A DNA stretch of 58,061 bases from a virus. Its lineage: Duplodnaviria > Caudoviricetes. The notes under the pieces were generated by a model that had not been told where the DNA came from, made no database searches, and worked only from the letters and a program-made list of their open reading frames with translations. Positions within the stretch are counted from its first letter, which is position 1. The number at the start of each line of letters is the position of its first letter. The DNA lies in the IMG/VR virus record IMGVR_UViG_3300036826_000378, positions 1-58,061 of that record; one strand, given 5' to 3'. Below, piece by piece: positions 1 to 57,093 of the stretch. The position numbers and the translations under genes are program-made.

Positions 1-258
1 GGGCTGCCGGGCGTCGAAGGCCCGGACCGTCCGCTCCCTCGCCTTCTCCTCTGCCTCGACTCGCTCCTGCGCCCGCGTCTTCGCTTCGGCCAGGGTGGCG
101 ATCGCAGTGCTGTAGTCCTGGTGGTGCCGGTGAAGGTCAGTGTCGACCAGTTGCCAGATCCGGGCCAATCGCTCGATCTCGAAGCGCCCGTCGTCGCTGC
201 GGTACAAGCTGACGCCGACACCCCGGGGCAGCTTGACGCGCTCCCAGGACAGGGGCAT
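1..258 (-). CDS. hypothetical protein, runs off window edge (MPLSWERVKLPRG...)
   Basis: ATG at 258 overlaps the TGA of the upstream gene (TGATG); frame is open to position 1; not in ORF track. Confidence 0.65.
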   Translation of the reverse strand, partial: MPLSWERVKLPRGVGVSLYRSDDGRFEIERLARIWQLVDTDLHRHHQDYSTAIATLAEAKTRAQERVEAEEKARERTVRAFDARQP

Positions 259-464
259 CAGCTCTCCCTCCCGCGCCGGAAGCGCGCCGGCAGCAGCACT
301 GTTGTGTCGCACGCCTCGCACGCCACGGTGCGCTGGCCCGGTCGGACTTCGTCGGCATCGATACCCCAGTCCATCGTCCCGAGGTTGTTCACGAGCGGCT
401 CCTCGCACTCCGGGTTGGGGCAGTCGAGGCGGAACACGGTCGGGACAGCCTTGGCCGTCTTCAC
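258..464 (-). CDS. small Zn-ribbon protein (CPNPEC...CEAC)
   Basis: GTG start in a GTGA overlap, SD-like AGGAG, two Cys pairs. Confidence 0.7.
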   Translation of the reverse strand: MKTAKAVPTVFRLDCPNPECEEPLVNNLGTMDWGIDADEVRPGQRTVACEACDTTVLLPARFRRGRES

Positions 465-33163: not shown

Positions 33164-33183
33164 CAGGAAGGGCTCGAAGGACA

Positions 33184-34306: not shown

Positions 34307-34312
34307 GGCTTC

Positions 34313-35187: not shown

Positions 35188-35195
35188 GGTAGCCG

Positions 35196-35459: not shown

Positions 35460-35496
35460 GTAACGGCAAGTCACTTCTCCTGAGAGGGTTGCTGCG

Positions 35497-36312: not shown

Positions 36313-36315
36313 GCA

Positions 36316-36597: not shown

Positions 36598-36600
36598 CGG

Positions 36601-37341: not shown

Positions 37342-37354
37342 GGGGGCCCCCGAG

Positions 37355-38104
37355 ATGGGCTTGATCCAGCAGGGGCACAACGAAGTCGCTGGGGCCGGCT
37401 CGGTCGCTCTGACCCTGGGTTCGCCCGTGTCGGTGAACAACCGGCTGGTCATCTGGGTCTACACCTACGGCGCCGGGATCACGCTGACGAAGGTCTCGGA
37501 CGGCCTGAACAATCAGGGTGCCACCTCCGGACAGTACGACCAAGTTGTCGTCACGGCGGACACCTTCAATGGTCACCTGTACGGTTTGACGGCTCCCGTT
37601 ACGGCCGGCGGCTCCGACCTCATTACAGCGACCGCAAGCGGCAGCGCATCGTACCTGTCGATGTGGGCTGGCGAGTACGACAACCTCGGAAACACAGTCG
37701 GCTCCACCGCGTGGGACGTCACGTCGGTCAATCACGGCACCATCGCCACGAGCATGGGGACCGGCACCACGGGCGCTGTGACCGCCGCTGGGGAGACTGC
37801 GATCGCGGCGTTCGGCGATACGTATGTCGGAGGCACCGGGACGGCGGTCACCAGCCCAGGCGGATGGAACGAGAGATTCAACGATACGCTCACTGTGACC
37901 AACGCGATCCCGTTGGTCGTGGTGGACAAGCCGGTCTCCAACGGTTCGACCGTCTCCGCGGACTGGACCTACGTGACCGCAGACGGCAGTAACACCTTTG
38001 CTGCCGCGGTCATCGTGTTCACGACCACCATCATCGTGCCACCGCTGGTGGGCGGCTTCGGCGGGCCGCTGGCCGACATCACTGGCGGCTACTGGATGAC
38101 CTGA
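37355..38104 (+). CDS. Thr/Gly-rich beta-strand virion protein
   Basis: composition and position. Confidence 0.7.
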   Translation: MGLIQQGHNEVAGAGSVALTLGSPVSVNNRLVIWVYTYGAGITLTKVSDGLNNQGATSGQYDQVVVTADTFNGHLYGLTAPVTAGGSDLITATASGSASYLSMWAGEYDNLGNTVGSTAWDVTSVNHGTIATSMGTGTTGAVTAAGETAIAAFGDTYVGGTGTAVTSPGGWNERFNDTLTVTNAIPLVVVDKPVSNGSTVSADWTYVTADGSNTFAAAVIVFTTTIIVPPLVGGFGGPLADITGGYWMT

Positions 38105-40374: not shown

Positions 40375-40413
40375 GCCTGGCAAGCCGTTCAGCTCAACAG
40401 CGTTGTCTCCGGC

Positions 40414-40743
40414 ATGACCTACGGGCCCGTGACGCAAGGCGAGAACTTCCAGTTCACCGGGCTGCTCCAGCTCGACACGGGGGAGCCGTTGATCGGAGCG
40501 GTCAGTGGCCAGCTCGTCTTCGCGCCGGTGATCGGCGAGCCGGCGACGAACCAGCGCTTCGCTGCCACCGGCGCCTTCACCATCACCAACTCCGAGACGG
40601 GCGCCTACACGTTCACCGCCTCGCCTTCTGACCTCACCAGGCTGCTCGCCGGCCATTGGGTCATGCAGGTGGCGGCGACCCTCTCCAGCGGCCAGGAACG
40701 CCTCAGCTCGAAGATGCAGCTCTGGGTGCTCGCGCCGCTCTGA
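40414..40743 (+). CDS. small Ig/BppU-like virion protein
   Basis: G.Y.F....DL....G.W..QV pattern. Confidence 0.6.
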   Translation: MTYGPVTQGENFQFTGLLQLDTGEPLIGAVSGQLVFAPVIGEPATNQRFAATGAFTITNSETGAYTFTASPSDLTRLLAGHWVMQVAATLSSGQERLSSKMQLWVLAPL

Positions 40744-40775
40744 GGGCAATGGGCTCTCGACAGTAGGACTGTCTC

Positions 40776-41426
40776 ATGCCCGATCCGCTGGCCGGCTTCA
40801 CCTACCCGCAGCCCAACTGGCCGTACCCCACGGGGTACGCCACGGTGGAGGACGTCCAGTCGCGCATCAACGCGGGCGTATGGGACCCAAGCAAGCCGAC
40901 CGCCGCCCCCAACACCGAACAGGTGCAGCAGTGGTTGATGGAGGCGACGGCCAACGTCGACGTGGCGCTGCGCACGCGCGGGTACTTCGTGCCCTTGCAG
41001 CCGTCCACAGGTTGGGCGGCGCCGCCAGGCATGGCGAGTCAGCTCTACCAGGGCATCGGACTGGGCGCGTGGTTGCAGCTCAAGAACATCTGCGCCTGTT
41101 ACGCAGCCCACTTCGTACAGCTCTCGCGCTACGGCACCCACAGCGCGAACAAGGACACCCACGCCGAAGAGTTCATGGCGATCTTCGATGACTTCCTCAC
41201 TCGCATCGAGTCGGCCGCCGACAACCTCATCGCCTTCGGAGTGGGCGGCGACTTCCCCCCGGAGATCGACATTGCGAAGGGCGCCCAGACGGGAAGCCTT
41301 GGCGCAACGCTGGCCGATCCCACTTCCATGCAAGGGCCGATCTTCACCAAGGGAATGCCCCTCGGGTCCGGTTACGAACAGCTTTCGCCGTCGGGCCCGC
41401 CTGGCAGCACGGGATCTGGTATCTGA
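40776..41426 (+). CDS. head-tail adaptor/completion protein
   Basis: YATVEDV...EATANVD..L..GY.VPL pattern. Confidence 0.7.
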   Translation: MPDPLAGFTYPQPNWPYPTGYATVEDVQSRINAGVWDPSKPTAAPNTEQVQQWLMEATANVDVALRTRGYFVPLQPSTGWAAPPGMASQLYQGIGLGAWLQLKNICACYAAHFVQLSRYGTHSANKDTHAEEFMAIFDDFLTRIESAADNLIAFGVGGDFPPEIDIAKGAQTGSLGATLADPTSMQGPIFTKGMPLGSGYEQLSPSGPPGSTGSGI

Positions 41427-41427
41427 G

Positions 41428-41607
41428 ATGGCTCGGAACACAAGCAAGCACGGCGCAAGCCACACTCCTCGGAAGCGAAGCACTACACCTCGCCATCTGA
41501 GCGATGAGGCGCGCGCACACATGTCGGCGGCTCGAAAGGGAAAGCCGCATCCACACAAGGGCTATAAGGGCCCGCGCAAGCCCTACAAGAAGAAGACCTG
41601 TCCTTGA
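41428..41607 (+). CDS. 59-aa highly basic protein with NUMOD3-like motif
   Basis: HLSDEARAHMSAARKGK; ATG 1 nt after upstream stop; TTGA overlap downstream. Confidence 0.65.
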   Translation: MARNTSKHGASHTPRKRSTTPRHLSDEARAHMSAARKGKPHPHKGYKGPRKPYKKKTCP

Positions 41608-42110
41608 TCTCCGTCGACATCATCGGTCTGCGCGATCTCCGGGGCCGCTTCGCCGCCATGCTGGACGAGGAGCTGGTCGCCATTCAGTTCGAGGAAGCGA
41701 CTGCGATGGCGGACGTGATCGAGCAAATCTTCCAGCGGCGGGCGCCGCGCGGCGAGAAGACCAGCACGGAGACGGGTCGGCACTTCTACGAGGGCATCAA
41801 GGCCCAGGCGACCGCGGAGGGCTTTGGCTTCTCGATCGAGGTGGACACCGACAACCCTAACCTCCGGCGGTGGCTGGCGGAAGGCACCGGCATCTACGCG
41901 GGCCAGGGCCGGATCTACGCCAGCAGCGGCGGAGCGCTCGGACCGATCACGAGCTGGTCGAAGGGCGGCAGCGGGCCGTACTTCTTCCGTTCCATCGCTG
42001 GCATGGAGGCCAACCCCTGGGAGAAGGACGCCGACGAGGAGGCCGCTCCCTTCGCCGTGGAGCTTGGCCGGCGGATCGGACAGCGGGTGGTCGTGGCTCT
42101 GGCGCTGTAG
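41604..42110 (+). CDS. HK97 gp10-like neck/tail completion protein
   Basis: RAP...TG, LAEGT, GMEANP motifs. Confidence 0.7.
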   Translation: MISVDIIGLRDLRGRFAAMLDEELVAIQFEEATAMADVIEQIFQRRAPRGEKTSTETGRHFYEGIKAQATAEGFGFSIEVDTDNPNLRRWLAEGTGIYAGQGRIYASSGGALGPITSWSKGGSGPYFFRSIAGMEANPWEKDADEEAAPFAVELGRRIGQRVVVALAL

Positions 42111-42713
42111 ATGGCCCAGGAGCCCCGTACCGGATCCCTGGAGCAGGTGTTGCGCTGCCTGCGGCTCTTGGCGCTCTCGCCGGCCTTCACGTTGGAGATG
42201 GACGCCGTGATCGCCTCCATGGGCACCGGCGCCTTCGTGCCGGCCAACCTCGTGGACGCGCATGGAAGCAGCTTCTCCCTGCCGGGCCTGGTCGACGCCG
42301 AGTTCGGTGATCCAGGGGGGTGGGTCTCGACTGCCTTCCAGGAGGTGACGTACTCGACGGCGCTGGTGCCGCTGCCGCCGTTCCCGCGGCTCCAGTTGTT
42401 CGGCATCCCGGGCCGGCTGGAGCCAAGCGAGGTGCTCGATACCGAACTGGCGGAGGGTTGGGTCTACACGATCGATGCGATCGTGGTGGAGGGGAACGAC
42501 CGCGCGGACCCGGCACTGCGCAGCGCCCTGGCGCTCATGGATGGCTTCGAGCGTCTTGTGCGCCGCAACGCACCGTCTCTCGGCGGCCTCGTGCAGTTGA
42601 TTACGGTGGAGGGGCCAGCGGCGCCGGGTGGGCCCGTAGAGGCTGACAAGGCGGGCATTGTGGCCGGCGTCATGCAACGCTTTCGAGTCATCTCGCTCCG
42701 CGCCCTCGTCTGA
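42111..42713 (+). CDS. putative tail terminator
   Basis: synteny; NAPSLGGLV motif. Confidence 0.6.
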   Translation: MAQEPRTGSLEQVLRCLRLLALSPAFTLEMDAVIASMGTGAFVPANLVDAHGSSFSLPGLVDAEFGDPGGWVSTAFQEVTYSTALVPLPPFPRLQLFGIPGRLEPSEVLDTELAEGWVYTIDAIVVEGNDRADPALRSALALMDGFERLVRRNAPSLGGLVQLITVEGPAAPGGPVEADKAGIVAGVMQRFRVISLRALV

Positions 42714-42769
42714 GGGCTCTCGCGCGCCACAGCCGGGGCAATTCCTCGCACGCGGGAACTTGCCCTCCG

Positions 42770-43231
42770 ATGCGGAATCGGACGGCAGAAGGGCCCTTCC
42801 TGCGCTCCAAGGTCAAGCCGCTCTCGGTCAAGAAGTCGCAGTGCTTCCTGATCCTCATGCGGAATCTCACCCCTGGAGAGCAGCAGGGCAAGTGGCAGCC
42901 TATCTCAACCAACGGCTTTCGAGTCGTTTGCCCCAGTCGACTCGAAGCGTGCGAGTGCGTATGGATGGTGGGGGGCGCTCTCTACCCGCGACCGCGCCAT
43001 CTCACATCCGCGACCGAGGACGCGGACTTCGCGTATCTGCGCTGGCTGCTCGACCACCATTTTCGCATCGTGCCCCACACAGCAGGCGGTGCGATGGAGG
43101 TGTGGTTCAGCGACTTCATCAGGGGCTGGTATCCGTCCGCCGAGGACATCCCTGGCGCCACGGCACCGATCCCCGACAGCGCTCGCGCCATGGCAGAAGC
43201 AGCGTTGCGGTTCAACTGGGAAGGCCGATGA
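42770..43231 (+). CDS. hypothetical non-structural-looking protein
   Basis: ATG 33 nt after GGCAA. Confidence 0.6.
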   Translation: MRNRTAEGPFLRSKVKPLSVKKSQCFLILMRNLTPGEQQGKWQPISTNGFRVVCPSRLEACECVWMVGGALYPRPRHLTSATEDADFAYLRWLLDHHFRIVPHTAGGAMEVWFSDFIRGWYPSAEDIPGATAPIPDSARAMAEAALRFNWEGR

Positions 43232-43807
43232 GTGTGCAGACCGCCGCGCGTACTCGTCGCCACATGCTTGCTGGAGTCGCTCTGGCCACACATGGCGATC
43301 TGGGAGCACGGGCTTCGCGCGCAGCAGACGGAGCTGCTGTGGGACGTCGCGGTGGTCGATGGCACGGATGCCCCCAGTCCTGGCTATACCGATCGCCTGT
43401 ACGACTGGGCGCGGAGCCGACCGTTCGGGGAGAAGCACCGTGTGCGCTTGCTGCGCGTCGGCTTGGAGGCCGAGGGCATGATGTTCGCGCACTCCGGCTG
43501 GAAGCTGGCACGCGCGCGGCAGCTCCTCTGGTCGAAGTTCACCTGCTGGTCTTCGTACGACTACCTGTTCACCGCGGCGCTCGACGTGGGGCTGCCGCCG
43601 AACACGCTGCAAGCGCTACACCGCGCCGCGGCGCCCTGGGCGGTGGCGTTCACCCCGGACGCCACGCCACATCCCCTGCGCCTGTCCCTCCTTCACGGCG
43701 AGCTGGTGCGAGAGGTCCCGTTCCAAGCGGCCCAGGAGAGCGATCTCGACTACTGCCGCGCCTGCGCCGCGAAGGGCGTGTACCCGGCGCTCGTGCTCGT
43801 GACGTGA
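43232..43807 (+). CDS. GT-A (family 2-like) glycosyltransferase, degenerate
   Basis: RVLVAT, VAVVDG, LARAR, YDYLFTAALDV, ESDLDYC...G. Confidence 0.55.
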   Translation: MCRPPRVLVATCLLESLWPHMAIWEHGLRAQQTELLWDVAVVDGTDAPSPGYTDRLYDWARSRPFGEKHRVRLLRVGLEAEGMMFAHSGWKLARARQLLWSKFTCWSSYDYLFTAALDVGLPPNTLQALHRAAAPWAVAFTPDATPHPLRLSLLHGELVREVPFQAAQESDLDYCRACAAKGVYPALVLVT

Positions 43808-43834
43808 TCCCCATGAGGAGGAGCTGATCTACCC

Positions 43835-44719
43835 GTGAGCGTCAACACCGTAAAGATCCGCCTCGGCGCCTGCGACCAGATGACCATGTACGCGGGCACG
43901 CTCAACGCGCTGGATCTCGGAGCCTCCGCGGGAGGAGCCGAACTCAGCTACAACCCCACGGTGTTGCTGGTCGAGATCGACCAGACGCCGATGCCGGTGA
44001 CCGCGTTCCGGACGAAGGAGGAGCTCCTCTTCGACGTCGCCATCGTGCAGTTCCAGATGAACCTGCTGTCGTTCGCCTGGGCCTACGCCAGCAGCACGGT
44101 CAGCAACGTCACCACAACATCCTCCGCGGCGCTCACTCCACCAACCGGCGGTACCGCGACCACGGTGGGCACGGCGGGGAGCACCACCTACACGTACGAG
44201 TGGGTCGCGTTCTGCTCGACTGGCGACTCGGTTCCCGGCACGACCTTCTCGGACACCACTGGGCCGACGACGCTCAGCTCGACCAACTACGTCCAGATCA
44301 CGGCGCCGTCGGCCGTGCCTGGGGCGGTTGGCTACAAGCTGGTCCGGACGGTGGGAGGTAGCAGCCAGGGCCTCATCGCCACCTTCTACGGTCTGCCGCC
44401 GACGGTCAACGACACCGGCCTGACCGCGACTGCGTACTCCGCGTCGGGCTCCAACCCGACCGCGCCGAACAGCGATGCGTCGTTCCTCGGCGGCACGGTC
44501 ACCGTGCCCAACGGCACGTTCGACTTCGCGGTGCCGAAGAACGACGGCACATCCAACCACCTGCGTGGCCATCTCCGGAAGGTGGTCAGCTCGAAGGCGA
44601 CCAAGCTCGGCTTCATGCGCGACAAGATTACCGAGGCATCCAAGCTCAGCCTGGCCTGCCTCGCCGACATGACGCAGACCGTCGGCCAGCAGGCCGGCTA
44701 CATCGTCGAGGAATACTAG
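43835..44719 (+). CDS. major tail tube protein with inserted beta-sandwich domain
   Basis: IRLG, DLG...GG..L.Y.P, synteny before chaperone and TMP; SD GAGGAGG. Confidence 0.8.
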   Translation: MSVNTVKIRLGACDQMTMYAGTLNALDLGASAGGAELSYNPTVLLVEIDQTPMPVTAFRTKEELLFDVAIVQFQMNLLSFAWAYASSTVSNVTTTSSAALTPPTGGTATTVGTAGSTTYTYEWVAFCSTGDSVPGTTFSDTTGPTTLSSTNYVQITAPSAVPGAVGYKLVRTVGGSSQGLIATFYGLPPTVNDTGLTATAYSASGSNPTAPNSDASFLGGTVTVPNGTFDFAVPKNDGTSNHLRGHLRKVVSSKATKLGFMRDKITEASKLSLACLADMTQTVGQQAGYIVEEY

Positions 44720-44753
44720 CTCGCGCTAGTCCGTAGGATCTCCTCTCTCCCGC

Positions 44754-44784
44754 CTCCCCTGCCGGCGCTGCGCCGGCAGGGGAG
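44754..44784 (+). terminator. 14-bp GC hairpin after the tail tube gene
   Basis: CTCCCCTGCCGGCG-CTG-CGCCGGCAGGGGAG. Confidence 0.6.
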
Positions 44785-44849
44785 CCTTCGGGGGCAACCC
44801 CGCCCGGCGGGCTTCATGTGGTGCACCACCTCACAAAGGAGCTCCACGA

Positions 44850-45305
44850 ATGGCGCAGGGCATCAATGCGCGCAAGCAGTCGAAGCTGGAGGAGGTCAGC
44901 GCAACGCCGCTCGACCTTCTGGACCGCACGGCTATCCAGGTCGCCGACGAGACGGTCTACGCCGGCAAACTCTCGATCAACCAACTCATCGCCGTAGCGC
45001 ACACGGCGGTCGAGGCGATGACGAAGCTCTCCCCGGAGCACCGCAACGTGCTGACGGAACTGGCCGGCGAAGACCAGGCTGGCGGCCTGGCCGAACTCAG
45101 CTCCCTCCTGGCGGTCCTCAACGAGGAGACGGTCAGCCAGATCATCGCCACGATCGTGAAGCGGGATCGGGCCTGGGTGGCAGAGAACGTGGGCCTGCTG
45201 GAGACGCTGCTGATCCTGGAAGCGGTCGCCGATCACAACGACATCGCACAGGTGCGTGCGGTTTTTTTTCGCCTCGTCAATCGCTTCAGGAGTTCCGCAA
45301 CCTGA
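44850..45305 (+). CDS. tail assembly chaperone (G form)
   Basis: SD AAAGGAG; T8 slippery run near the 3' end. Confidence 0.8.
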   Translation: MAQGINARKQSKLEEVSATPLDLLDRTAIQVADETVYAGKLSINQLIAVAHTAVEAMTKLSPEHRNVLTELAGEDQAGGLAELSSLLAVLNEETVSQIIATIVKRDRAWVAENVGLLETLLILEAVADHNDIAQVRAVFFRLVNRFRSSAT

Positions 45306-45661
45306 GCGAACCACTGGCGACGCTCGAAGTGTTTGGCGTGTCGGCCGAGGAGGCGCGCGAGCACTCCCTGGAGTGGCTACAAGGCGTCTCGGAGACAGTG
45401 ATGCGCAGGCGGCGAAGCGACAAGGCAGACGCCCTGACGTTCGCTGTGCTCGCGGCAGCCGTTGGCGCTGGCAGCGAAGACGCGGCCTCGGAAGTCGAAC
45501 GGCTGATGAGCGAGCTGGTGCCACCGGAGGACGACGCGAGTCGCTCGCACCTGCTCAACCCCGATGCAGAGACGGACTGGGGTGCCGTCCGCGGCGGCGG
45601 CGTGGCGACGATGGCCGTCCAGCGCGTGAAGGTGTCGCCGGAGCCGGGAGAACCGACATGA
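44850..45661 (+). CDS. tail assembly chaperone GT form via -1 frameshift at 45260-45269
   Basis: GGTTTTTTTTC; -1 frame open to 45661 (SPRQSLQEFRNL...). Confidence 0.75.
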
Positions 45662-45867
45662 CGGACAAGAAGGAAGCGACCAAGGACGCACTGGCCGAGG
45701 GCCCCAAAGCCGCTGAGGCGCCGCCAGAGCGCGTCACAGCCACGTACCGCGGGCCCCACGACGCGCTCGTGCTGGAAGACGGCACTGTGCTCCTCCTGCA
45801 TGTCGAGACGGCGACTACGCAGGCCGCGATCGACGCGGCGCGGACCGCCGGCCACCTCATCGACTGA
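45658..45867 (+). CDS. small hypothetical protein (MTDKKEAT...)
   Basis: SD GGGAG, ATGA overlap. Confidence 0.65.
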   Translation: MTDKKEATKDALAEGPKAAEAPPERVTATYRGPHDALVLEDGTVLLLHVETATTQAAIDAARTAGHLID

Positions 45868-45887
45868 CGGACTGAGGGCCGCTTCTC

Positions 45888-48800
45888 GTGGCTGACGTCG
45901 CGCGCCTCCTGCTGCTCCTGACCGGCAACGCCGAGGGTGCCGTCGCGGCCCTGGGTGAAACCGATGCCGCCCTGAAGGAGGTGGGTCGGAGCGCGAACGA
46001 GAGCAACGGGTTCCTCGGCGGCCTCGCCAACGGCTTCAAAGCGCTGGTGGTGGGCACGGTCGCCGTTGGTGCCGTGATTGCCGCCGTCAGCACGAAGTTC
46101 GCCGCTGACTTTCAGCAGGGGACGACACGCCTCATCACCAACGCGGGCGAGACGCGCGATGCCGTCGAGAACATCATCAAGCCAGCGCTGCTGGATATGG
46201 CCGTTACTACCGGCTATTCGACTGAGCAGCTCGTGGAAGGCTTCCGTGTGGTCAGCTCGGCTGGGTACAAGGCAGCCGAGGGCGTCAAGGTACTCACGGT
46301 CTCAGCCGAAGGTGCTCGGGCGGAACAGGCGGACCTCGGTGTTGTCCTGAACGCCGTCACCAGCATCCTCAACGCTTACAACCTCAAAGCTGACGACGCC
46401 GGCATGGTCATGAACACCCTGACCCTGGCCATGCAGAGCGGCAAGCTCACCCTGCAAGACCTCTCCAATGCCCTGGGTACCGTCATCCCCGCGGCGGCGA
46501 ATGCCAACATCAATATCCAGGAACTGACCTCAGCGCTTGCCACCATGGCCAATGAGGGCATCAAGCCGGCGAACGCAGCCACTTATCTGCGGTTCACCAT
46601 CCTGAACCTTCAGAACGCCACACCAAAGGCACGCAAGGAGCTGGAGGCGATCGGGCTGTCTGCTGATTCGCTCAGCCGGACGCTCACCACGCATGGCCTC
46701 GGTGCCGCCCTGGAAGTGCTCGATCAGGCCATCGCCAAGAAGTTCCCTTCCAGTGCCGCTGTGTTCAGGGCGGAGATGGCGAAGGTCAAGGCCGGAACGG
46801 AAGACATGGACACCGCCATGGTGAACATGACCAAGAACAGTCCGGAGGCGACTGCCGCGCTGTCCAACATCACAGGTGGCATCCGTGGCGCGCAGGGTGC
46901 CCTGGCGCTTGGTGGCGCCCACCTGTCCGGGTTCATCTCCATGACAAAGGACGTGACCGACAAGGTGCGCTTGGCCGGTCACGAGATCATCGGATGGCGC
47001 GAGATCCAGGACAACATGAACTTCCAGCTCTCGCGCGCCAAGGAAGCGCTGGAGCTGCTGGCGATCTCGCTCGGGACCAAGCTCTTGCCGTACGCCACCA
47101 TGGCGTTCAAGGTCTTCGCTGACTGGGCCCCCAGTCTAGTCGCCCTGCCTGGCCAGCTTCAAGCGATGGCCACTGTGGTCGCACAGGCGGTCGGTCCCTG
47201 GGCGGCGCTTGTACTGCACATGACGCAGTCGCTGGGGCCTTTCGGCTGGTTCCTGGGGCCGGGAGTAGGGGTCGCTGCCAACCTCCGGGGCGTCCGCGAC
47301 ATGGTCAAGTTGCTCTCGGACGAAATCAGCGTTGGTGCGCCCAAGTGGCTCATCTTCGAAGACGCTCTCCAGCAGATCGGCTTCAGTGCCGATCGCGCCG
47401 GAGAGATCGGGTCACAGTTCCGCTCGGCGTGGGCGGCGGTTCACCCTCTCCTCAGCACGCTGGCCACTGTGATTCGCGGGCTCGACTCCGACATTCGGAT
47501 CGGCGTGCCCTTCTGGATGGCGCTCGAAAACACGCTGATGCGACTGGGAATGGGCGGCAAGCAGGCCATCGCCTGGGGCTACGAACTGCGCCAAATCTGG
47601 GAGGCTATCCAGCGAGCGGGCCGGCAGTTGTGGGAAATGCTGGGGCACGCCCTCGGCCCAGCGCTGACACAGTTTGCGCGCGATGCCGGCCCGCTCTGGA
47701 AGCAACTGCGCGAGACCTGGGAAAGCTTGAAGCCGATCCTGGCCGCCGTGGGCGTCGTGCTGGGCATCATCGCTGCTGTCGGCATGGCGTTGCTGGTCGG
47801 CGTGGTGAAGGGGCTCATCATGGCCCTGGGCGTGGTGCTGCCGGATGCAGTCCACTTCCTGATTACGGCCCTGATGCTCGCTGCTGCGATTATCAAGCTG
47901 GCAGCCGACATCATCGTCGGTTCCTGGCGGCTCGCCATGGCGATCTTCAAGGCGCTGATCTTCGGCGACTGGAAGGGCCTGTGGGAAACCGCGAAGGACG
48001 TTCTCGGCAAGATTGCTGGAGACATCGGGAACATCGTCGGCGACCTGATGGACCTGATCGGCACGATCGTCCACACGGGCGTGATGGCTACCTACTGGTT
48101 CTTCTGGGGGCTGGTGTCCGGGGTCGTCGGCTTCTTCCAGTGGCTGTTCCAGCAGCTCGTCGGCGGGTCGATTGTGCCGGATCTTGTCAACGCCATCATC
48201 CAGTGGATCCTCCGCCTCGACTCGATGGTCATCGCGATCATCCGCCTTCTCGTAAACACCGCCATCGCCGTGTTCATGTACCTCTGGAACGCTGGCGTCT
48301 CTGGAGCGCAGGCGTTGGCGAATGGCGTGTTCGGGGCCTTGCAGTGGATGGCGAACGCGGCAGGTTCGGCTGTGGACTGGCTGAGACAGAACGTCCTCGG
48401 CCGCTTGTCGAGCCTGATCGGCGACGCCATCAGTTATGCCTCTTCAGTGGGCAGCGGGATCGCGAACGGGATCGCGAACGGCATCCGCAACGGGGCCTCC
48501 GTGATCATCAACGCGGCGCGCAGCGCGGCCCAGTCGGCACTGAACGCGGCCAAGAACCTGCTGGGGATCACTTCGCCGTCGACCGTCATGGCGCGGGAGG
48601 TGGGCCTGCCGACCGCCCAAGGCGTGGCCTTGGGTATCGACCAAGGGGCCTCGCAGGCGCAGAACGCCCTCGGGCGTCTCGTGCGTGGCCTGTCACAGGG
48701 AGTCACCGGCGCCGCGCTGGCGACCTCGGCCGACCTGACCGCCAAGCTCTCCAGCTCGATCTCGAACACGGCCGCGGCGTTGACAACCCCGGCGGCCGCA

Positions 48801-48920
48801 GGCGGTACCGACAACGCCGACATCCTCGACCGGCTTGACCGAACGAACCAGCTCCTCCTGGCAATCGCGCGAGGCAAGTCCAATGTGAATGGCTTCGCAG
48901 CCGCACTGAGGCAAGGATGA
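45888..48920 (+). CDS. tape measure protein
   Basis: 1010 aa helical, Ala-rich with periodic W/F, LGITSPS motif. Confidence 0.92.
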   Translation: MADVARLLLLLTGNAEGAVAALGETDAALKEVGRSANESNGFLGGLANGFKALVVGTVAVGAVIAAVSTKFAADFQQGTTRLITNAGETRDAVENIIKPALLDMAVTTGYSTEQLVEGFRVVSSAGYKAAEGVKVLTVSAEGARAEQADLGVVLNAVTSILNAYNLKADDAGMVMNTLTLAMQSGKLTLQDLSNALGTVIPAAANANINIQELTSALATMANEGIKPANAATYLRFTILNLQNATPKARKELEAIGLSADSLSRTLTTHGLGAALEVLDQAIAKKFPSSAAVFRAEMAKVKAGTEDMDTAMVNMTKNSPEATAALSNITGGIRGAQGALALGGAHLSGFISMTKDVTDKVRLAGHEIIGWREIQDNMNFQLSRAKEALELLAISLGTKLLPYATMAFKVFADWAPSLVALPGQLQAMATVVAQAVGPWAALVLHMTQSLGPFGWFLGPGVGVAANLRGVRDMVKLLSDEISVGAPKWLIFEDALQQIGFSADRAGEIGSQFRSAWAAVHPLLSTLATVIRGLDSDIRIGVPFWMALENTLMRLGMGGKQAIAWGYELRQIWEAIQRAGRQLWEMLGHALGPALTQFARDAGPLWKQLRETWESLKPILAAVGVVLGIIAAVGMALLVGVVKGLIMALGVVLPDAVHFLITALMLAAAIIKLAADIIVGSWRLAMAIFKALIFGDWKGLWETAKDVLGKIAGDIGNIVGDLMDLIGTIVHTGVMATYWFFWGLVSGVVGFFQWLFQQLVGGSIVPDLVNAIIQWILRLDSMVIAIIRLLVNTAIAVFMYLWNAGVSGAQALANGVFGALQWMANAAGSAVDWLRQNVLGRLSSLIGDAISYASSVGSGIANGIANGIRNGASVIINAARSAAQSALNAAKNLLGITSPSTVMAREVGLPTAQGVALGIDQGASQAQNALGRLVRGLSQGVTGAALATSADLTAKLSSSISNTAAALTTPAAAGGTDNADILDRLDRTNQLLLAIARGKSNVNGFAAALRQG

Positions 48921-51900
48921 CGACACCATACACGCCGACCTGGCTGGTTCCCTCGACGCCGGGCATGCTTTGCAACTTCTACGGTTCAAATGCGGGCACG
49001 TACGAAACGCCTCCGGCGCCGCACCTCTCGGTGGATGGCTTTAAGACGTCCAACCTGCCGGCTGGTTCGTACTCGTTCGTCATGGTCACGTCCGGGCCTG
49101 GGGGCGTGTCAAACACCAGCCTCGCCGCCTCGATCATCATCACTATCAACCAAGCGATCGACATTGGCATGACAGACATGCCAGATGACACGTGGCCCGT
49201 GTACCGGTTGTACCTTACGTCGGCGCCTGGCGGAGTGACGCTCGGAGAGGTCCCGCTTGTCGACGCAGACGGCACTGGCGCGGCGGTCCCGCTCAACGCG
49301 GGCAGCGAGCAGCAGGGGTACAACGTCGGCGCCGACAACTGGCTCACCGCGGTGAACCAGTGCACGGGCGTCGGCGCTCCGACTGGACCTGGGAATTACG
49401 ACGCGATCCCTCTCACGCTGCGCTACAGCAACCCCAACCAGTCCTCGAAGCCTGCCGCTGCTCGCCTGCGCGTGACCAGAGTCGGCCGGAACGGGACGAG
49501 CTCGGGCTCCGAGGACATCTACGACGGTGGTTGGGTGGGAAACGTGGCCACGCAGGCGGCTCCGAACCTGGAAGGCAGTTTCGGACCGAACGGAGCGGTG
49601 TACTACCCGAAATCGGGTCGTGTCTACCTCCTGCTTGGCAACGCCTCGAACTACTTCCCGTACCAGCGGGCCGGGGCCGCACTGCTCTCTGCGCCGGCTG
49701 CCGGCGGCAGCGTGGGTACCTGGCGCCTGGAAGCTGCCGTGCCATCGGCCGTTGCTGGCGACACCAGCGATCCCGGCGGTCTCTGCATCATCAACGGCTA
49801 CCTCTACACCGTCACGGACGGGAGTATCTGGTATGCCCAGATCCTCGGCGACGGGTCCGTTGCCAACTGGGCGGTCGCTACCCCCTCCACCTACACGGGC
49901 GGTGGTGGAGAGACGCTGTGTGGGTTCGACACTGGCCTGGGAGTCGCGCCCGTCGGCACGATCTTCGTCTTCAATACCACCAGTGTTAACTCGTTTACGG
50001 TCAACCCGGACGGCACCTTGGCTTTCGTCACCAATAAGACGCTATCGGTGGCCTTCCGTAGGTATGGCGCCGCATTCTGCGAGCCGTCCAACACTGTCGG
50101 CGCCACGACGGGCTACCTCGTCTACATGGGCGGCCAGGACGGGAGCAGCGTTGACCAGAGCACCATCTTCTACATCCAAGTAGACCTTGGCACCGGTACG
50201 GGGTTCACAACCTGGACCACATCGGGAGTCACGCTGCCCGCGGCGATGTCCCACTTCGCCTGCGCGCATTGGGGAGCGGTCGCATCTTGGCCAGGTGGAG
50301 AAAGCGGCGGGGTACTGATCGCAGGTGGGGTTTCGGGTGGGGTGGCGCGCAATCAGGTCTACGAAGCGTCCTTCAACACGTGGTACACGCAGTCGCCACC
50401 CCAGTTCACCCAGGTAGGTACGCTCCCGACTACCCTGGCGGCCTGCTCGGCCGCGGTGTTCAACGACTGGCCTTTCATCAACCTGCCGGTGCCGTCGGCG
50501 ATCCCCAATGACACTCGCGACACGAACTACGCTGTCTTCGGGCTCAACGTCACCTACGGCCAGAACGGCTACATCCAGTTTGGCAGCCAGGTCTTCCATT
50601 CGGGTACCGCTTCGGAGCTGACCGGTTCGCAGCTTGGCCAGAACGGTTCTGTTGTCAACAACAGCGATGGTACCGTGGACGTGACGCTCTACGTCAATGC
50701 ACAGCCCCGCCAGAGCGGCCCGGTCAACGCGCCGCTCTACCTCAGCAACGGCGATCAGATCCAGTGCGATGTGCAGTTCCTGGATCAGTCCGGCGATCCC
50801 TCGCCGTGGGCCTCCACGATCATCAACATCGGCCAGCCACCTGGGATCACTGGCATCGTTCCGACGATCAGCACGGCCACAGGAAAGCCGACAGCCAGCT
50901 TCCAGTACCTGCCGGGCGCAGGAGGGGGGCTTCAGGGAACATGGCGCCTCCAGGTGTATACGCCCTCCAGCGCCCTGGTCTTCGACACGGGCACGCGCGT
51001 GGATCAGACCAATGTGGTCGTAGTCAACACGGCCCCGCTGCTGCTCTCTGGTACCCAGTACACGTTCGTCTGGACGGTGGCTTCGACCGACACCCCGATG
51101 AACGACGGACACTCGACCAATCTGATTGGGACCACCAGCCTGCTTGTCACGCCCTCCTACAACCCCCCGCCGCCGCCGCTGAACTTCGCGGTGACGACCG
51201 ACAGCACGCGTTGCGCCGCACTGCCGTCCTGGACGAATCCCATGGCCGGGCCGGCGCTAGGGCCATCTCCAGCGCAGGCTGACCCCACCGGCGCGAGCAG
51301 TCTGCTCCCGGGGACGTACAGCGTCGCCTACACGTTCCTGACCACCGCGGGCTACGAGACGTCAGCGTCGCCCGTGGGGTCGGTTTCGATCGCTGACTTG
51401 CTCGCACCTGCGCTCTCGCCCGCGGTCGTCTCGGCGGATCCCACTGGCGCGCAGGGACTGGTGCCTGGCTCCTACAGCTTCGTCCAGACGTACACCAACA
51501 GCGCGGGGGAGACTACGGTCAGTCCCACCGCAGCGGTGGTCATCGCGGACGTCACCGCTCCCTCGGCGCCGGTTGTGGCTCAGGCCGAACCGACGGGAGC
51601 CGCTGGCCTGATCCCCGGGTCCTATACCTTCGTCCAGACATACACCAATACTGTTGGCGAGACAACTGCGAGCAGCACCGGCAACGTCACCATCGCGGAC
51701 ATCGCGGCGCCTTCGTCGCCTTCTCTGGCGCAATCCGCAGCGTCCAGTGCGTTCACCAGCGGGCAAACAATCCACGTCCGAATCGAATACGCGAACACAG
51801 TTGGCCGCACAACGCCAAGCGCAGACACTTCCATCGTGATTGCGACCAACGGCAACAAGGTGACAACGACGATCACCCTTCCGTCTGGATCCAACGGAAT

Positions 51901-53743
51901 GCGTCTGTTTGTCGGAACCAGTTCGTCCTGTCTCGCCCTGGCTGACATCGATTCGGCCGGAACGGTGACCTTCCTGGGGGGCAAGAGTTCAGGCGTTACC
52001 GTGGTGGTGTCCGGCGGACTCCAGCTCACCATCACTGAAACGGCCAGTGGTACCGGGAACGCGCAGGATGGGACGAACACCGCTCACAGAGTCATCCAAT
52101 GGACGCCACCCTCGCTGCCGGCCGGCCGGACGTCTGTGAAGTTGTACCTCACGGTGGTGCCGGGTGGCGGCCCGGCGTTGGGCTTCGAGGCCAGCGCCTC
52201 TACCACCACGCCGATCCTCATCACAGGTGGAGGGAACGGCACTTCGGCGCCAGGATCGAACACCGCGCACCGCTGCATCCAGTGGACACCACCCTCGCTG
52301 CCGTCCGGCGCTACGAGTGTGAAGTTGTACCTCACTGTGGTGCCCGGGGGCGGCCCTGCCCTCGGCTTCGAGACCTCAGCCACAACCACGACACCCATCG
52401 CGATCACCACGGGCGGCAACGGCACCGCGGCGCCGGGCACCAACACAGCACATCGGGTGATCTCGGTGCCGGCCATCACTCTTCCAGGCGGCGTCTCCGC
52501 TGCGAGGTGGTACCTGACCTCCGCTCCGGGGGGCGTGACGGCTGGATTCGAGGTGCAGAACGGCGGCGGTCCGACGACCATCTCTGCCGGCGGGAACGGC
52601 GTGCTGCCACCGGCCACGACCGGCATGACCCGGATCTACTACCGCCGGAACGGCACGACGCCGTGGTACCTGCTGGTGGACGCATTCGTGAACTACTCGG
52701 TCAAGGTGGAGGCGGAGAGCGGCGTTCTGGCTGGGGGCGCGAGCATCCACTCCGACCACTCCAACTACTCCGGTTCAGGTTTCGTCCCCCTTGCGGCCAC
52801 CGGCAATGCGGACACGCTCAGCGTCACGGTGCCTACCGCTGGCACATACACGCTCGATATCCGTTACGCGAACGGCCAAGGCGTCTCCGAGACGCTGGAC
52901 ATCGTCGTGAACGGCGGCACGCCGCAGACCGTGACCTTCCCCGCCACTGCCAACTGGGACACTTGGGGAGACGTCACCACCACCGTGACACTCTCGGCTG
53001 GAGTGAACACGATCGAGGTAATCGAGAACTCCGGAGACACGGGCCACTTCAACGTGGACTACATCGTCATCTCCGCGGGCGCCTCGTCGGCGGTACTTAT
53101 GGATCAGCTCGCGATCGGCGCCAAGTACGACTTCGCCATCTCGGCAGTCGACACCTCTGGCGGGATGGAGTCGGCGATGACCGCAGCGGTCAGCAACGTT
53201 ACCATCCCGAACCCCGCGAACGGGGCCACCGTCATGCTGCATATCCAGGGACACGGGCCCTCGTACTACGTGCCTTTGATGGCCACCGGCGGCGTGAAGG
53301 TCAAGGGGTTTCTGGACGTGCAGCCGGCGCCGATGTTCGGCCTTGCGGCCCCCACGCTTCGCTACGGGATCACCGACTTCCGCGAGTTCGACATGACGGC
53401 ACGGTTGATCGACACCTCCACCGATCCGTTGGGAGCGACCACGTACACGGAGCTTCAGGGCGTCTTCGCGCAGTTCAAGCAGGGCGCCACAGGCGTGCTG
53501 AGGACGGTGGCTGGCACGATGATGACCGTCGGGCTCTCGGTCATCACCAGTAGCGCGACGGCCTCCCTGTACGACGTCAGCTTCCTGCCTTCCTCGTATC
53601 TGGCGATGCGCGAGATCACCTTGTCGTTTCTCCAAATTCCCAACCAGTACCAGCCGTCCACGACGGCTGGCAGCGCGCTGGGGATGCTGCCACAGGTCAA
53701 TGGTTCGGTGACACCGCTGGACCTGCTGGAGCTGGCCATCTGA
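48917..53743 (+). CDS. large minor tail protein: Kelch-like repeats, FN3, nested beta-sandwich repeats, CBM6/35
   Basis: 1608 aa after TMP; MGGQDG and IAGG Kelch-like motifs; VEAESG...IRYANG...FP.T..W..W...NVDYI CBM. Confidence 0.85.
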   Translation: MTTPYTPTWLVPSTPGMLCNFYGSNAGTYETPPAPHLSVDGFKTSNLPAGSYSFVMVTSGPGGVSNTSLAASIIITINQAIDIGMTDMPDDTWPVYRLYLTSAPGGVTLGEVPLVDADGTGAAVPLNAGSEQQGYNVGADNWLTAVNQCTGVGAPTGPGNYDAIPLTLRYSNPNQSSKPAAARLRVTRVGRNGTSSGSEDIYDGGWVGNVATQAAPNLEGSFGPNGAVYYPKSGRVYLLLGNASNYFPYQRAGAALLSAPAAGGSVGTWRLEAAVPSAVAGDTSDPGGLCIINGYLYTVTDGSIWYAQILGDGSVANWAVATPSTYTGGGGETLCGFDTGLGVAPVGTIFVFNTTSVNSFTVNPDGTLAFVTNKTLSVAFRRYGAAFCEPSNTVGATTGYLVYMGGQDGSSVDQSTIFYIQVDLGTGTGFTTWTTSGVTLPAAMSHFACAHWGAVASWPGGESGGVLIAGGVSGGVARNQVYEASFNTWYTQSPPQFTQVGTLPTTLAACSAAVFNDWPFINLPVPSAIPNDTRDTNYAVFGLNVTYGQNGYIQFGSQVFHSGTASELTGSQLGQNGSVVNNSDGTVDVTLYVNAQPRQSGPVNAPLYLSNGDQIQCDVQFLDQSGDPSPWASTIINIGQPPGITGIVPTISTATGKPTASFQYLPGAGGGLQGTWRLQVYTPSSALVFDTGTRVDQTNVVVVNTAPLLLSGTQYTFVWTVASTDTPMNDGHSTNLIGTTSLLVTPSYNPPPPPLNFAVTTDSTRCAALPSWTNPMAGPALGPSPAQADPTGASSLLPGTYSVAYTFLTTAGYETSASPVGSVSIADLLAPALSPAVVSADPTGAQGLVPGSYSFVQTYTNSAGETTVSPTAAVVIADVTAPSAPVVAQAEPTGAAGLIPGSYTFVQTYTNTVGETTASSTGNVTIADIAAPSSPSLAQSAASSAFTSGQTIHVRIEYANTVGRTTPSADTSIVIATNGNKVTTTITLPSGSNGMRLFVGTSSSCLALADIDSAGTVTFLGGKSSGVTVVVSGGLQLTITETASGTGNAQDGTNTAHRVIQWTPPSLPAGRTSVKLYLTVVPGGGPALGFEASASTTTPILITGGGNGTSAPGSNTAHRCIQWTPPSLPSGATSVKLYLTVVPGGGPALGFETSATTTTPIAITTGGNGTAAPGTNTAHRVISVPAITLPGGVSAARWYLTSAPGGVTAGFEVQNGGGPTTISAGGNGVLPPATTGMTRIYYRRNGTTPWYLLVDAFVNYSVKVEAESGVLAGGASIHSDHSNYSGSGFVPLAATGNADTLSVTVPTAGTYTLDIRYANGQGVSETLDIVVNGGTPQTVTFPATANWDTWGDVTTTVTLSAGVNTIEVIENSGDTGHFNVDYIVISAGASSAVLMDQLAIGAKYDFAISAVDTSGGMESAMTAAVSNVTIPNPANGATVMLHIQGHGPSYYVPLMATGGVKVKGFLDVQPAPMFGLAAPTLRYGITDFREFDMTARLIDTSTDPLGATTYTELQGVFAQFKQGATGVLRTVAGTMMTVGLSVITSSATASLYDVSFLPSSYLAMREITLSFLQIPNQYQPSTTAGSALGMLPQVNGSVTPLDLLELAI

Positions 53744-53776: not shown

Positions 53777-54928
53777 GTGCAGCTCCTCAGCGGCGTCTCC
53801 AGCCTCGGCACCACGTACTCCGCCGCCCAGGTGCTCTCTCAACTGCTCGCGCCGTCAGCGCGTGAGTCATATGTCTTCTACCAGTACGACTACTCCAGGC
53901 GCTTCAAGGCGGATCTGAGCCCACTCGTGAACGTCGGTTCAACGCCGGCCATCGAGCACGACACCACCCGGGCCGTGAAGCGCACGCTCGGGTTCACTAC
54001 CCGCGGTGACGCGCAATTCAGTCAGCTTCGCGATCTGATCCAGCCACGGTACCGTTTGTTCATGCCGGACGGTGGCTACGTGGAGTGGCCACTGGGCCTG
54101 TTCACGGTACTACCGCCGAGTCAGAGCATCACGTCAGCACAGACGTGGCTTCAGTTCCAGCTTCCCGAAGTGACCCAACTTCTTGTGGACGCCAGCTTCA
54201 CGACCACCTACACGGCCGCCGCGGGGGCCAGCTACATCGCGACCATCCGCGACATCGTCTCTACGGCGGACCTCCCCACAACGCTGCCCGTACAGATCGT
54301 GGATCCAGGCACCACCATCCCGGCAACGCTCACCTGGGAGTATGGAACCTCGCGCCTCCAGGCGATCAACGATCTACTCGACGCGATCAGCTACTTCCCG
54401 CTCTGGTCTGACGAGAACGGCACTCTGCGCTCCAGCGAGATCCCCGACTGGAACACAGTGACCCCCTCGGCGACGTTCGACGCGACCAAGCCACAAACTA
54501 CGATCGCCATCGACCTGAGCGAGACCGCCGACATCAGCCAGGCGTACAACCAAGTGCTTGTCGTCGGTGAAGATCCACGCCGAAACGTCGTTACGGGGTT
54601 CTACGAAAACACGAACCCGGAGTCTCAGGTGAGCACGGTCAACTGGCACCCGAAGCTCCAGGTCATCAAGGACTCCTCGGTGCCCGACACGTCTACGGCG
54701 CTGCGCAAAGCCAAGGCCGCGGCACAGCAGGCTGCACGCATCTACACCGAGCTCCAGATGAACACCCTGGCTTGGCCGGTCAGCCAGGACCACGACGTGT
54801 ACGAGGTCACCTACCAATCCACGGACACCGGCCTGGTGACCGGACCCTACGTTGAGATTGGCTGGACGGTGCACGCAGCCACGGGTGGGTTCACCCTGCA
54901 CAGGCTCACGAGGATCGTGCCGTCGTGA
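53777..54928 (+). CDS. minor tail/baseplate hub protein
   Basis: EWPLGLF, SRLQAINDLL..I.Y..LW.D..G, YNQVLV. Confidence 0.75.
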   Translation: MQLLSGVSSLGTTYSAAQVLSQLLAPSARESYVFYQYDYSRRFKADLSPLVNVGSTPAIEHDTTRAVKRTLGFTTRGDAQFSQLRDLIQPRYRLFMPDGGYVEWPLGLFTVLPPSQSITSAQTWLQFQLPEVTQLLVDASFTTTYTAAAGASYIATIRDIVSTADLPTTLPVQIVDPGTTIPATLTWEYGTSRLQAINDLLDAISYFPLWSDENGTLRSSEIPDWNTVTPSATFDATKPQTTIAIDLSETADISQAYNQVLVVGEDPRRNVVTGFYENTNPESQVSTVNWHPKLQVIKDSSVPDTSTALRKAKAAAQQAARIYTELQMNTLAWPVSQDHDVYEVTYQSTDTGLVTGPYVEIGWTVHAATGGFTLHRLTRIVPS

Positions 54929-55830: not shown

Positions 55831-57093
55831 ATGACCGAACTCGCACCGCGCCGCTCGGCCATCTGGGCCATCCTCGTCGCGACTGCCGCGGCCGTTCTCT
55901 TCCTCGCGGCGTGTGCCCCCTCGGCTTCGCAGCGTGGTCCCGCTTCGGTCGCACCAGCCTCGTCAGCTCGTCAGGGTCAACCAGCCCTGCCCACACCCTC
56001 GGGGCAGAACGGGCTGCCTCGCGGCGTAGCTGGCGCCTCGCTGGTTAACCCGCCCGGCACGATGGGCTCTCAGCTCCCCTCGTGGGCGCAGAAGGAGCGG
56101 GCCCTCAAGATCCCCAACCCGCCGCCGCCGCACGGTGCGCTGGTCACGATCCTTGGCGTCGACATCAGCGAGTGGCAGGGGGGTACCAACCTCGCCGCCT
56201 ATGACCGCAGCTTCATCATCATCCGCGAGCAGTACGGGACCGCCGGCCTCGACAAGCAGTTCGTCTCGAACCGCAACCAGGCCCGCTCGCGCAACCTGCC
56301 GCGCAGCTTCTACCACTACGCCTATCCCGAGTACAACACGCCGGAATCAGAAGCCCGAACCTTCGCCTATGGCACGGACTGGCAGCCCGGCGAGGGCGCG
56401 ATGCTCGATTTCGAGGAGCAGTACGGGGACCCGGTCGGCTGGAGCCTGCGCTTCCTTCAAACGTTCGAATCGATCGAGCACTTCAAGCCTACGATCTACA
56501 TGAACGTCTACACGCTGTACGCCTACAACTGGGCGCCAGTCGCGGCGAATGGCAACGGCCTGATCGCAGCGCAATGGAACTTCAACCAGTCGACCCCGCC
56601 GTCCGGCGCCTTCCCGTTCGCCGCGGGCAAGCAGTACACGGACGCCGACTCGGTCAACGGCATCAGCGGTCGCGTCGATGGTGACGTTTTCTACGGCGAC
56701 GCGAGCACCTTCCTGAAGTACGGCGCGGGTGCGGGCGCTGGCGCGGGCACCAACCCGCCGCCCCCAGCTCCAGCGCCCACTCCTGCGCCCGGTATCGGCT
56801 GCTCGCACACCGTGCAGCCCGGCGAGACCCTGAGCGGCCTCGTGGGCTCCAGGTGGCCCCAGGTGGCGGCCGGCAACGGCCTGAGCAACCCGAACCTGAT
56901 CCGCGTCGGCCAGGTGCTCAACCTGTGCGCTTCCGGCTCCGCCGTCAGCTCGGGCTCCGCCGCCGGCTGCGTGACCGTCCGCCGCGGCGACACGATGAGC
57001 GGCCTCTTCGGAGCGAACTGGCCGGCCGTCGCGCGCAAGAACGGCATCCGCAACCCGAACCTGATCTTCCCCGGCGAGCGCATCTGCGCGTGA
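55831..57093 (+). CDS. endolysin: GH25 muramidase plus two LysM, N-terminal signal peptide with lipobox
   Basis: GVDISEWQG, LDFEE, QYT, VDGD; HTVQPGETLS...NPNLIRVGQ and TVRRGDTMS...NPNLIFPGE; FLAAC. Confidence 0.9.
   Translation: MTELAPRRSAIWAILVATAAAVLFLAACAPSASQRGPASVAPASSARQGQPALPTPSGQNGLPRGVAGASLVNPPGTMGSQLPSWAQKERALKIPNPPPPHGALVTILGVDISEWQGGTNLAAYDRSFIIIREQYGTAGLDKQFVSNRNQARSRNLPRSFYHYAYPEYNTPESEARTFAYGTDWQPGEGAMLDFEEQYGDPVGWSLRFLQTFESIEHFKPTIYMNVYTLYAYNWAPVAANGNGLIAAQWNFNQSTPPSGAFPFAAGKQYTDADSVNGISGRVDGDVFYGDASTFLKYGAGAGAGAGTNPPPPAPAPTPAPGIGCSHTVQPGETLSGLVGSRWPQVAAGNGLSNPNLIRVGQVLNLCASGSAVSSGSAAGCVTVRRGDTMSGLFGANWPAVARKNGIRNPNLIFPGERICA

Follow-up and report, generated by a model that had tools for sequence, protein, structure and literature searches.

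We analysed a stretch of viral DNA of 58,061 nucleotides (Duplodnaviria; Caudoviricetes; IMG/VR record IMGVR_UViG_3300036826_000378, positions 1 to 58,061 - hereafter the window), in which the first gene after the tape measure gene codes for a protein of 1608 residues (48917..53743; this gene and every feature of it described below lie on the + strand). Residues 787-1236 of this protein most probably form an out-and-back stalk of four beta-sandwich domains in a tail-tip protein, the domains being nested inside one another in the order A1[A2[A3[A4B4]B3]B2]B1. Each domain would comprise about seven strands, three from its A segment and four from its B segment, and the chain would lay A1, A2, A3 and A4 outward, turn within A4B4, and complete domains 3, 2 and 1 on its way back through B3, B2 and B1. 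A nest written A1[A2[A3[core]B3]B2]B1 had been proposed from the letters of the sequence alone for positions 51161-53205 (residues 749-1429 of the 1608-residue open reading frame, ORF), and this sequence-only reading of the order is now supported by unsplit AB domains in other proteins, by matched counts of A and B units in 86 of 123 homologues, by the ranges over which solved domains align to an AlphaFold2 model, and by two-chain docking.

Unit borders were set from a windowed BLOSUM62 self dot-plot together with a MAFFT alignment of the units (a blastp search of the protein against itself returned the trivial self match only, and the dot-plot was used instead). Four A half-units (residues 787-980) are followed by four B half-units (981-1236), with a carbohydrate-binding module (CBM) of the CBM35 type after them, an order that the dot-plot and unit alignments show to be as first described. 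The first half of the outermost domain, A1 (51275..51430, residues 787-838), is supported by dot-plot, MAFFT, the AlphaFold2 model and VIA-align; the first half of the second domain, A2 (51431..51580, residues 839-888), by dot-plot, MAFFT, AlphaFold2 and two-chain ESMFold2; and that of the third domain, A3 (51581..51733, residues 889-939), by dot-plot, MAFFT, VIA-align and two-chain ESMFold2. The innermost domain, A4+B4 (51734..52075, residues 940-1053), is unsplit, A4 (940-980) running into B4 (981-1053) without a linker; it is the predicted tip and is of a different subtype, widespread as a single module. On the return arm, B3 (52076..52258, residues 1054-1114; DNA repeat, MAFFT, VIA-align, ESMFold2) closes the third domain, B2 (52259..52441, residues 1115-1175; DNA repeat, MAFFT, ESMFold2) the second, and B1 (52442..52624, residues 1176-1236; dot-plot, MAFFT, VIA-align) the outermost.

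In the MAFFT alignment, likeness among the units follows a mirror order, again as read from the sequence. A2 and A3 are identical at 33 of 50 positions (66%), and A1 matches either of them at 26 of 50 (52%); B3 and B2 are identical at 52 of 61 positions (85%), and B1 matches either at 27 of 59 (46%). A4 and B4 are the most divergent units (24-32%), with 25-32% identity to the other A units and 24-32% to the other B units respectively. At the DNA level B3/B2 is a 183-nucleotide tandem repeat (52074-52439) of 77-78% identity.

What does an A unit together with a B unit represent? An exhaustive HMMER search with residues 745-1260 recovered 41 proteins at E <= 0.001, the query included; in three of these (P0013, P0037 and P0039) one A unit, close to the A2/A3 type, is directly followed by one B unit of the B2/B3 type, and in a fourth (P0009) the order of units is ABAB. 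Since unsplit AB occurs in these proteins, A followed by B is, by sequence, one domain of about 100 residues that can stand by itself; neither Pfam nor PHROGs has a family for the A or B units. Many other HMMER matches cover the A4B4 type alone, as a single module. Its carriers include a FlgK hook-associated protein (P0010), where it lies between the D1 and C-terminal parts, the Baseplate_J proteins P0024 and P0029, the beta-helix tailspike-like proteins P0009, P0016 and P0030, and a GH5 enzyme (P0035). On this distribution the tip domain looks like a mobile surface module. The protein under study also carries an AB-like copy near its N-terminus (49049..49291), which the sequence-only reading had taken for an unsplit A+B. 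Its second half, B0 (residues 79-129), stands up well, with a B-profile match at E 2.7e-10 and 41% identity to B1; its first half, A0 (residues 45-78), has 26-32% identity to the A units and is not detected by the A profile at E 0.01, so that the copy is secured in its second half and weak in its first.

Two further arrangements were seen among the search results. In P0005 (553 residues), an A4B4-type domain lies inside a B unit at residues about 40-330, after an 'RRLYRSP' strand, and the profiles read b-A-b; the sites at which the module enters its relatives are therefore not confined to a single loop. In two bacterial repeat proteins (P0026, P0038) with ordinary tandem Ig-like repeats, the A profile also matches the 'DGSYQFRATVTDAAGN' hairpin of those repeats; the Y-x-F...AGN/GET hairpin motif common to Ig/FN3-like domains is therefore present in the A unit as well.

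If A and B units are halves of the same domains, homologues should gain or lose them in matched pairs, as the sequence-only reading had predicted. In several of the HMMER matches (P0004, P0014, P0017, P0025, P0031) a series of A units precedes a series of B units, and of 8000 candidates scored in a search with the nest of P0031, 807 proteins passed E <= 1e-5; the 120 best of these 807 carry no functional names, a few having Pfam PF05954. Profiles were made from the units of the window and of P0004, and matches were counted at E <= 1e-3 in 123 family proteins. The numbers of A and B units are equal in 86 of the 123, differ by one in 33 and by more in four (Pearson r 0.76); with B counts shuffled, 32.3 of 123 are equal on average, with a maximum of 48 in 10000 shuffles. 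The 86 balanced proteins span depths of 3 (11 proteins), 4 (25), 5 (34), 6 (9), 7 (5), 8 (1) and 9 (1). The central gap, from the last A to the first B, has a median of 13 residues in balanced proteins; it is 49-75 residues long in 21 of the 25 proteins with one A fewer, and 72-80 residues in all eight with one B fewer. Such long gaps fit a divergent innermost half that the profile has missed, and in P0025 the profile count is 3/4 where the count by eye is 4/4. Looser profiles (domain E 0.05) brought short false matches in the flanks, giving 76 of 123 equal, or 71 of 123 with length filters, and the strict count was kept. Two proteins depart from a plain run of A followed by a run of B, P0045 (AAAAAAAABBBBBABBBB) and P0115 (AAABABBB), and in both each A is still closed by a later B. 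We note that in these two the additional unsplit AB branches off sideways from the return arm, the bracket-like closure being kept.

For structure prediction, residues 776-1240 were aligned with 25 homologues in one-to-one register of units (P0025 and 24 proteins counted as plain 4A/4B; P0115 was excluded). The resulting AlphaFold2 model is all beta (predicted local distance difference test, pLDDT, 72.9; predicted template modelling score, pTM, 0.62), with three strands per A unit and four in each of B3 and B2. Pairing was read from the ranges of VIA-align matches in two runs and from an ESMFold2 contact list, and contiguous single domains of solved structures were found to span regions of the model that lie far apart. 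FN3 domains of gp130, fibronectin, tenascin and lambda J, along with MG domains of complement C5, align over model residues 12..441, that is A1 plus B1 (Z 4.0-4.8, 62-79 residues). Residues 163-291 of 7qok_A, the muzzle protein of phicrAss001, align over model residues 104..340, A3 plus B3 (Z 8.9, root-mean-square deviation 2.6, 108 aligned), and FN3 domains also align over 112..322. The A4B4 region (model 153..270) is matched by the SPO1 capsid protein 9vel (Z 8.5-8.8) and, at lower Z, by latrotoxin and galectin-type sandwiches.

A second prediction was made with the two arms as separate chains: the A run (model 12-164, A1-A3) and the B run (279-461, B3-B1) were given to ESMFold2, with the A4B4 turn omitted. 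The pair scored 0.71 (runs 0.67, 0.71 and 0.71) against 0.00 for the best of three controls; the mark for this score, reached by 58 of 80 solved complexes and 2 of 110 mismatched pairs, is a rough guide here, where an alignment of our own was used. The runs have at least 91% of contacts in common, with a partner pLDDT of at least 81, and the contacts of lowest error are 80-84/359-363 (A2-B2), 130-133/300-302 (A3-B3) and 61-62/348. PDB searches found no solved structure for any relative of the nest and no like complex, so this result does not reflect recall of a known complex. Foldseek against PDB gave no match at E <= 0.001, its top, non-significant rows being fragments of GhpA; an independently predicted structure in BFVD, A0A6J5PZ96 from an uncultured phage protein, matches the whole model (E 3e-13, TMq 0.47, 537 columns). 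Pairing of the A and B halves in mirrored order in three dimensions is supported by these models, and the contacts A1-B1, A2-B2 and A3-B3 expected from the sequence-only reading emerge from the VIA-align ranges and ESMFold2 contacts taken together.

The homologues carry mirror signals of their own. Among the 25 aligned with the nest, mean pairwise identity is.53 for A1,.51 for A2,.40 for A3 and.32 for A4, then.32 for B4,.52 for B3,.56 for B2 and.64 for B1. Conservation drops from the outside in on both arms - the base is conserved, the tip variable. Across the 86 balanced proteins, the A-A and B-B identity matrices correlate at a mean r of 0.33 in mirrored order and 0.02 in parallel order, part of the mirrored correlation being due to the divergent innermost pair. 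The family proteins are mutually related, and the counts behind these mirror signals are not independent.

Several observations weigh against the nested arrangement. On the structural side, all the support is predicted, and AlphaFold2 and ESMFold2 shared one alignment of 26 rows. A2 plus B2 does not occur as a range among the 50 rows of either VIA-align list, and this pairing consequently rests on the two-chain ESMFold2 result and on exclusion. A larger AlphaFold2 model of residues 745-1440, made from the query and eight rows covering the nest only, is poor (pLDDT 57.1, pTM 0.37). On the side of the counts, 37 of the 123 homologues are unbalanced under the strict count. P0028 has 4A/2B and P0104 5A/8B; P0059 has seven A with five B by profile and six by eye; and P0056 (1A/7B), which is counted among the four proteins off by more than one, is an N-terminally cut fragment. 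The family sequences come from metagenome assemblies, in which repeat collapse and real imbalance of unbalanced members look the same. Finally, the closest A pair is the mirror of the closest B pair in 19 of 86 proteins against 12.4 expected, a weak test, and among identical residues the codons are identical at 13 of 33 for A2/A3 versus 31 of 52 for B3/B2.

Would the same evidence be produced by pairing between chains? If the A units of one copy completed the B units of its neighbour (3D domain swapping), an intertwined fibre would result, with which the matched A/B counts and the A-B contacts fit equally well; the ESMFold2 runs, moreover, were given as separate chains. In siphophage tails the proteins at this position form oligomeric rings, which also favours such an exchange. 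However, A4 passes into B4 without a linker, as in the unsplit domains elsewhere, making a natural hairpin turn, and the monomer model reaches its pTM of 0.62 with the pairing inside one chain. We therefore regard interchain pairing as improbable, though it is the strongest of the alternatives.

It is somewhat less probable still that the nest is real and has no role in reach, being a tolerated recombination product that is harmless or gives bulk or stability. The promiscuity of the innermost domain type, which turns up in FlgK, Baseplate_J, beta-helix tailspike-like and GH5 proteins, speaks for this view. It is countered by signs of purifying selection on the units, B3/B2 being 85% identical in protein against about 76-78% in DNA, by an architecture that is kept in at least 807 proteins, and by the conserved bases and variable tips seen among the 25 aligned homologues. 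Least probable of all, and in our opinion disfavoured, is that the A run is a stack of beta-hairpins and the B run a string of small domains, two independent tandem arrays that each fold on their own and whose counts are similar by descent: both runs do look like ordinary tandem repeats, B3/B2 is a plain 183-nucleotide tandem duplication, the A and B duplications differ at synonymous sites and unbalanced homologues exist (37 of 123 by strict count), but other proteins have A and B joined directly in one single domain, A and B numbers agree in 86 of 123 homologues where 32 are expected, individual domains of solved structures align across A_i plus B_i of the model, the two-chain score is 0.71 against 0.00 for the controls, and the conservation gradient is mirrored.

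Within the nested arrangement, how the layers arose is a separate question. The sequence-only reading had invoked repeated self-insertion at a single loop, and this mode of growth found no confirmation: the innermost domain is of a different subtype from the shells, so the array was not grown by copying its tip, and the codon figures for A2/A3 and B3/B2 (13/33 and 31/52) mean that the two duplications need not have been one event. Either the A2/A3 and B3/B2 duplications differ in age or later homogenisation acted on the B pair. Were a contiguous AB inserted at the turn, the innermost layer would be the newest, whereas here layers 2 and 3 are the most alike. A pair of balanced unequal exchanges, the A run and the B run each undergoing one, would yield the observed order and would serve for gain and loss of layers, with selection then purging products that carry unpaired halves. 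That reading had also spoken of a telescoping stalk; nothing in the analysis speaks for telescoping as a movement.

Beyond the nest, the best-defined part of the protein is the CBM35/CBM6 carbohydrate-binding module (52703..53074, residues 1263-1386), identified by Pfam and by sequence matches to solved structures. Pfam CBM_35 (PF16990) matches residues 1263-1385 with 48.8 bits against a cut-off of 28 (E 1.1e-12), PF03422 matches the same module with 44.6 bits against a cut-off of 28.9, and 26 distinct PDB sequences of CBM35/CBM6 type match at E <= 0.01, all on residues 1254-1394, the best being 5x7o_A (3e-42). The complete CBM6/35 near the nest that had been recognised from the sequence alone is thus secure.

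The surroundings of the nest and module had been described as one FN3 domain cut into three: strands A-B before the nest (51173..51241, residues 753-775), strands C-C' after it (52625..52702, residues 1237-1262) and strands E-F-G after the CBM (53087..53206, residues 1391-1430). The three stretches are present as written; their identity as FN3 is unconfirmed. Pfam fn3 is matched neither by the whole protein (E <= 1) nor by any of the three pieces (E <= 10), as would be anticipated of a domain cut in three. In the model of residues 745-1440 the flank pieces (model 1-51, 470-554 and 644-696) have pLDDT <50, one of them being drawn as a helix; no homologue covers these columns, and for this reason the low values are no evidence against FN3 either. 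A whole-homologue alignment of 745-1440 was set aside and not folded, as its FN3 and CBM columns were filled with the unrelated flanks of the homologues (occupancy 0.91-0.96, identity 0.15-0.21). The meeting of the two ends of the nest, A1 with B1, fits insertion into a loop, and with both ends of the stalk leaving from one place, the rod would therefore act as a single insertion in a loop of the host protein.

The C-terminal domain (53207..53740, residues 1431-1608) has no Pfam or PHROG match; by language-model features the C-terminal 184 residues are nearest to stand-alone viral proteins of 129-166 residues (score 0.91, a lead only), and the domain may be the part seated in the tail. The gene lies directly 3' of the tape measure gene, the position of the distal tail protein (Dit), and outside the CBM the 1608-residue protein has no Pfam or PHROG match, hence no Dit family match. 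Some 600 residues ahead of the nest (residues 126-745, 49292-51150) show no family match except a weak Ig-like one at 651-725 (E 0.0011, below the cut-off).

The tape measure protein itself is coded at 45888-48920 (PHROG E 1.9e-45; Pfam PhageMin_Tail E 2.6e-28), and the two genes overlap by 4 nucleotides, the second starting inside the stop of the first. Further 3' lie a tail protein gene (53777-54928; phrog_1887, E 2.1e-30), an unmatched ORF and, within the same module as the nest protein, an endolysin with GH25 and LysM domains (55831-57093). The endolysin, together with a G+C content of 64-71% in the window, suggests a high-G+C Gram-positive host. A scan of the other ORFs of the window with the unit profiles found no A/B repeat units. 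At 29389-31758 a 789-residue ORF gives weak matches to head maturation proteases (phrog_976, phrog_328) and to DUF6582, and judging from these may be a fused protease-scaffold or capsid protein.

Searches for related loci returned little. A tblastn search of 50,697 phage records matched four, all Listeria phages and all through the CBM only, and a megablast of 29389-45888 found no similar phage in the same collection. A scan of viral contigs with P0001 gave no pattern match. An alignment-based profile search of genome contigs gave two loci, and a family homologue in one locus (L001) is likewise directly 3' of a tape measure gene. With P0031 as query against genome contigs there were 28 pattern matches and no relative among them, and in a word-index search with residues 745-1260 among proteins of 884-2814 residues the query protein was the sole match.

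Recursive self-insertion of a domain has been published before. In Si3, an insertion in the beta' subunit of cyanobacterial RNA polymerase, segments distant in the sequence come together in domains SBHM-2 to -5, with the chain folding over itself (PMC10895346), and Si3 serves, in a 2026 survey of 2.7 million domains, as the example of the most complex organisation, with six levels of recursive insertion (PMC13114784). The two systems have in common one domain type repeatedly inserted into itself within a host loop, an elongated body, and a chain that folds back. They differ in fold, the Si3 domains being SBHM (hybrid motif) whereas the pairs of the nest align to Ig/FN3-like sandwiches; in host, the trigger loop of a polymerase as against a phage tail protein; and in regularity, the nest being a clean A^n B^n with a depth of 3 to 9 among relatives and its most variable domain at the turn. 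No RNA polymerase chain appears among the Foldseek and VIA-align rows shown, nor is there a PDB sequence match, and the likeness to Si3 is architectural, not one of family. What is new here is the other fold, the occurrence in phage tails, and the variable depth of up to nine.

Tandem FN3/Ig arrays such as those of lambda J, fibronectin and GhpA share with the nest a rod of beta-sandwich domains on a surface structure, and the FN3 domains of the lambda central tail fibre J (8iyk_J, 8xci) and of fibronectin align to A1 plus B1 with Z about 4. The GhpA grappling hook is a one-way string of contiguous domains (10.1101/2024.01.29.577165). In the nest, by contrast with such arrays, all domains but the innermost are split and the chain returns to its origin. 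Residues 163-291 of 7qok_A (the phicrAss001 tail muzzle) and 281-402 of 9vel (the SPO1 capsid), the best structural matches to A3 plus B3 and to A4B4 respectively, are unlike the nest in being single, contiguous domains; identity is 17-19%, and values of Z near 8 are common for VIA-align. A further comparison is with the 'evolved' Dit proteins of Gram-positive phages, in which CBMs are inserted in a loop as single-level insertions. The protein described here resembles them in lying directly after the tape measure gene and in having a CBM inserted in a tail-tip protein; unlike them it lacks a Dit family match, and any Dit-like part would be C-terminal. No description of a nested A^n B^n phage tail stalk was found in the literature searched, which left subscription journals and supplements outside its scope.

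As to function, a sandwich domain of FN3 size is about 3.5-4 nm long, and at that length per sandwich the rod, which would be rigid, should measure roughly 15 nm. It would project from the tail tip and hold the variable tip domain away from it, and rod and neighbouring CBM35 might together serve reversible adhesion to the cell-wall polysaccharide of a Gram-positive host. The reach would depend on the number of layers, and the range of 3 to 9 layers in homologues fits such tuning. We are evenly divided on a broader proposition: that these proteins - at least 807 in public data - constitute a widespread phage tail-tip class with a length-adjustable rod built by a bracket rule, each first half having to be closed by a second half in reverse order, in which depth sets the reach of the tip and layers change through paired exchanges between co-infecting relatives.

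If the nesting is correct, its three to nine layers would exceed the six levels reported for the most complex insertion architecture. Protein repeat arrays are nearly always tandem; here a nested rule would apply across hundreds of proteins of differing depths, and domain callers that expect contiguous domains will miss the units, while repeat counters will see two unrelated arrays. A rod whose ends are adjacent can sit in any surface loop, a property of interest to protein designers. The family would also offer a natural series for the folding of split domains with halves hundreds of residues apart, for the growth of an array without unfolded intermediates, and for the ways in which phages may tune the reach of a tail-tip adhesin.

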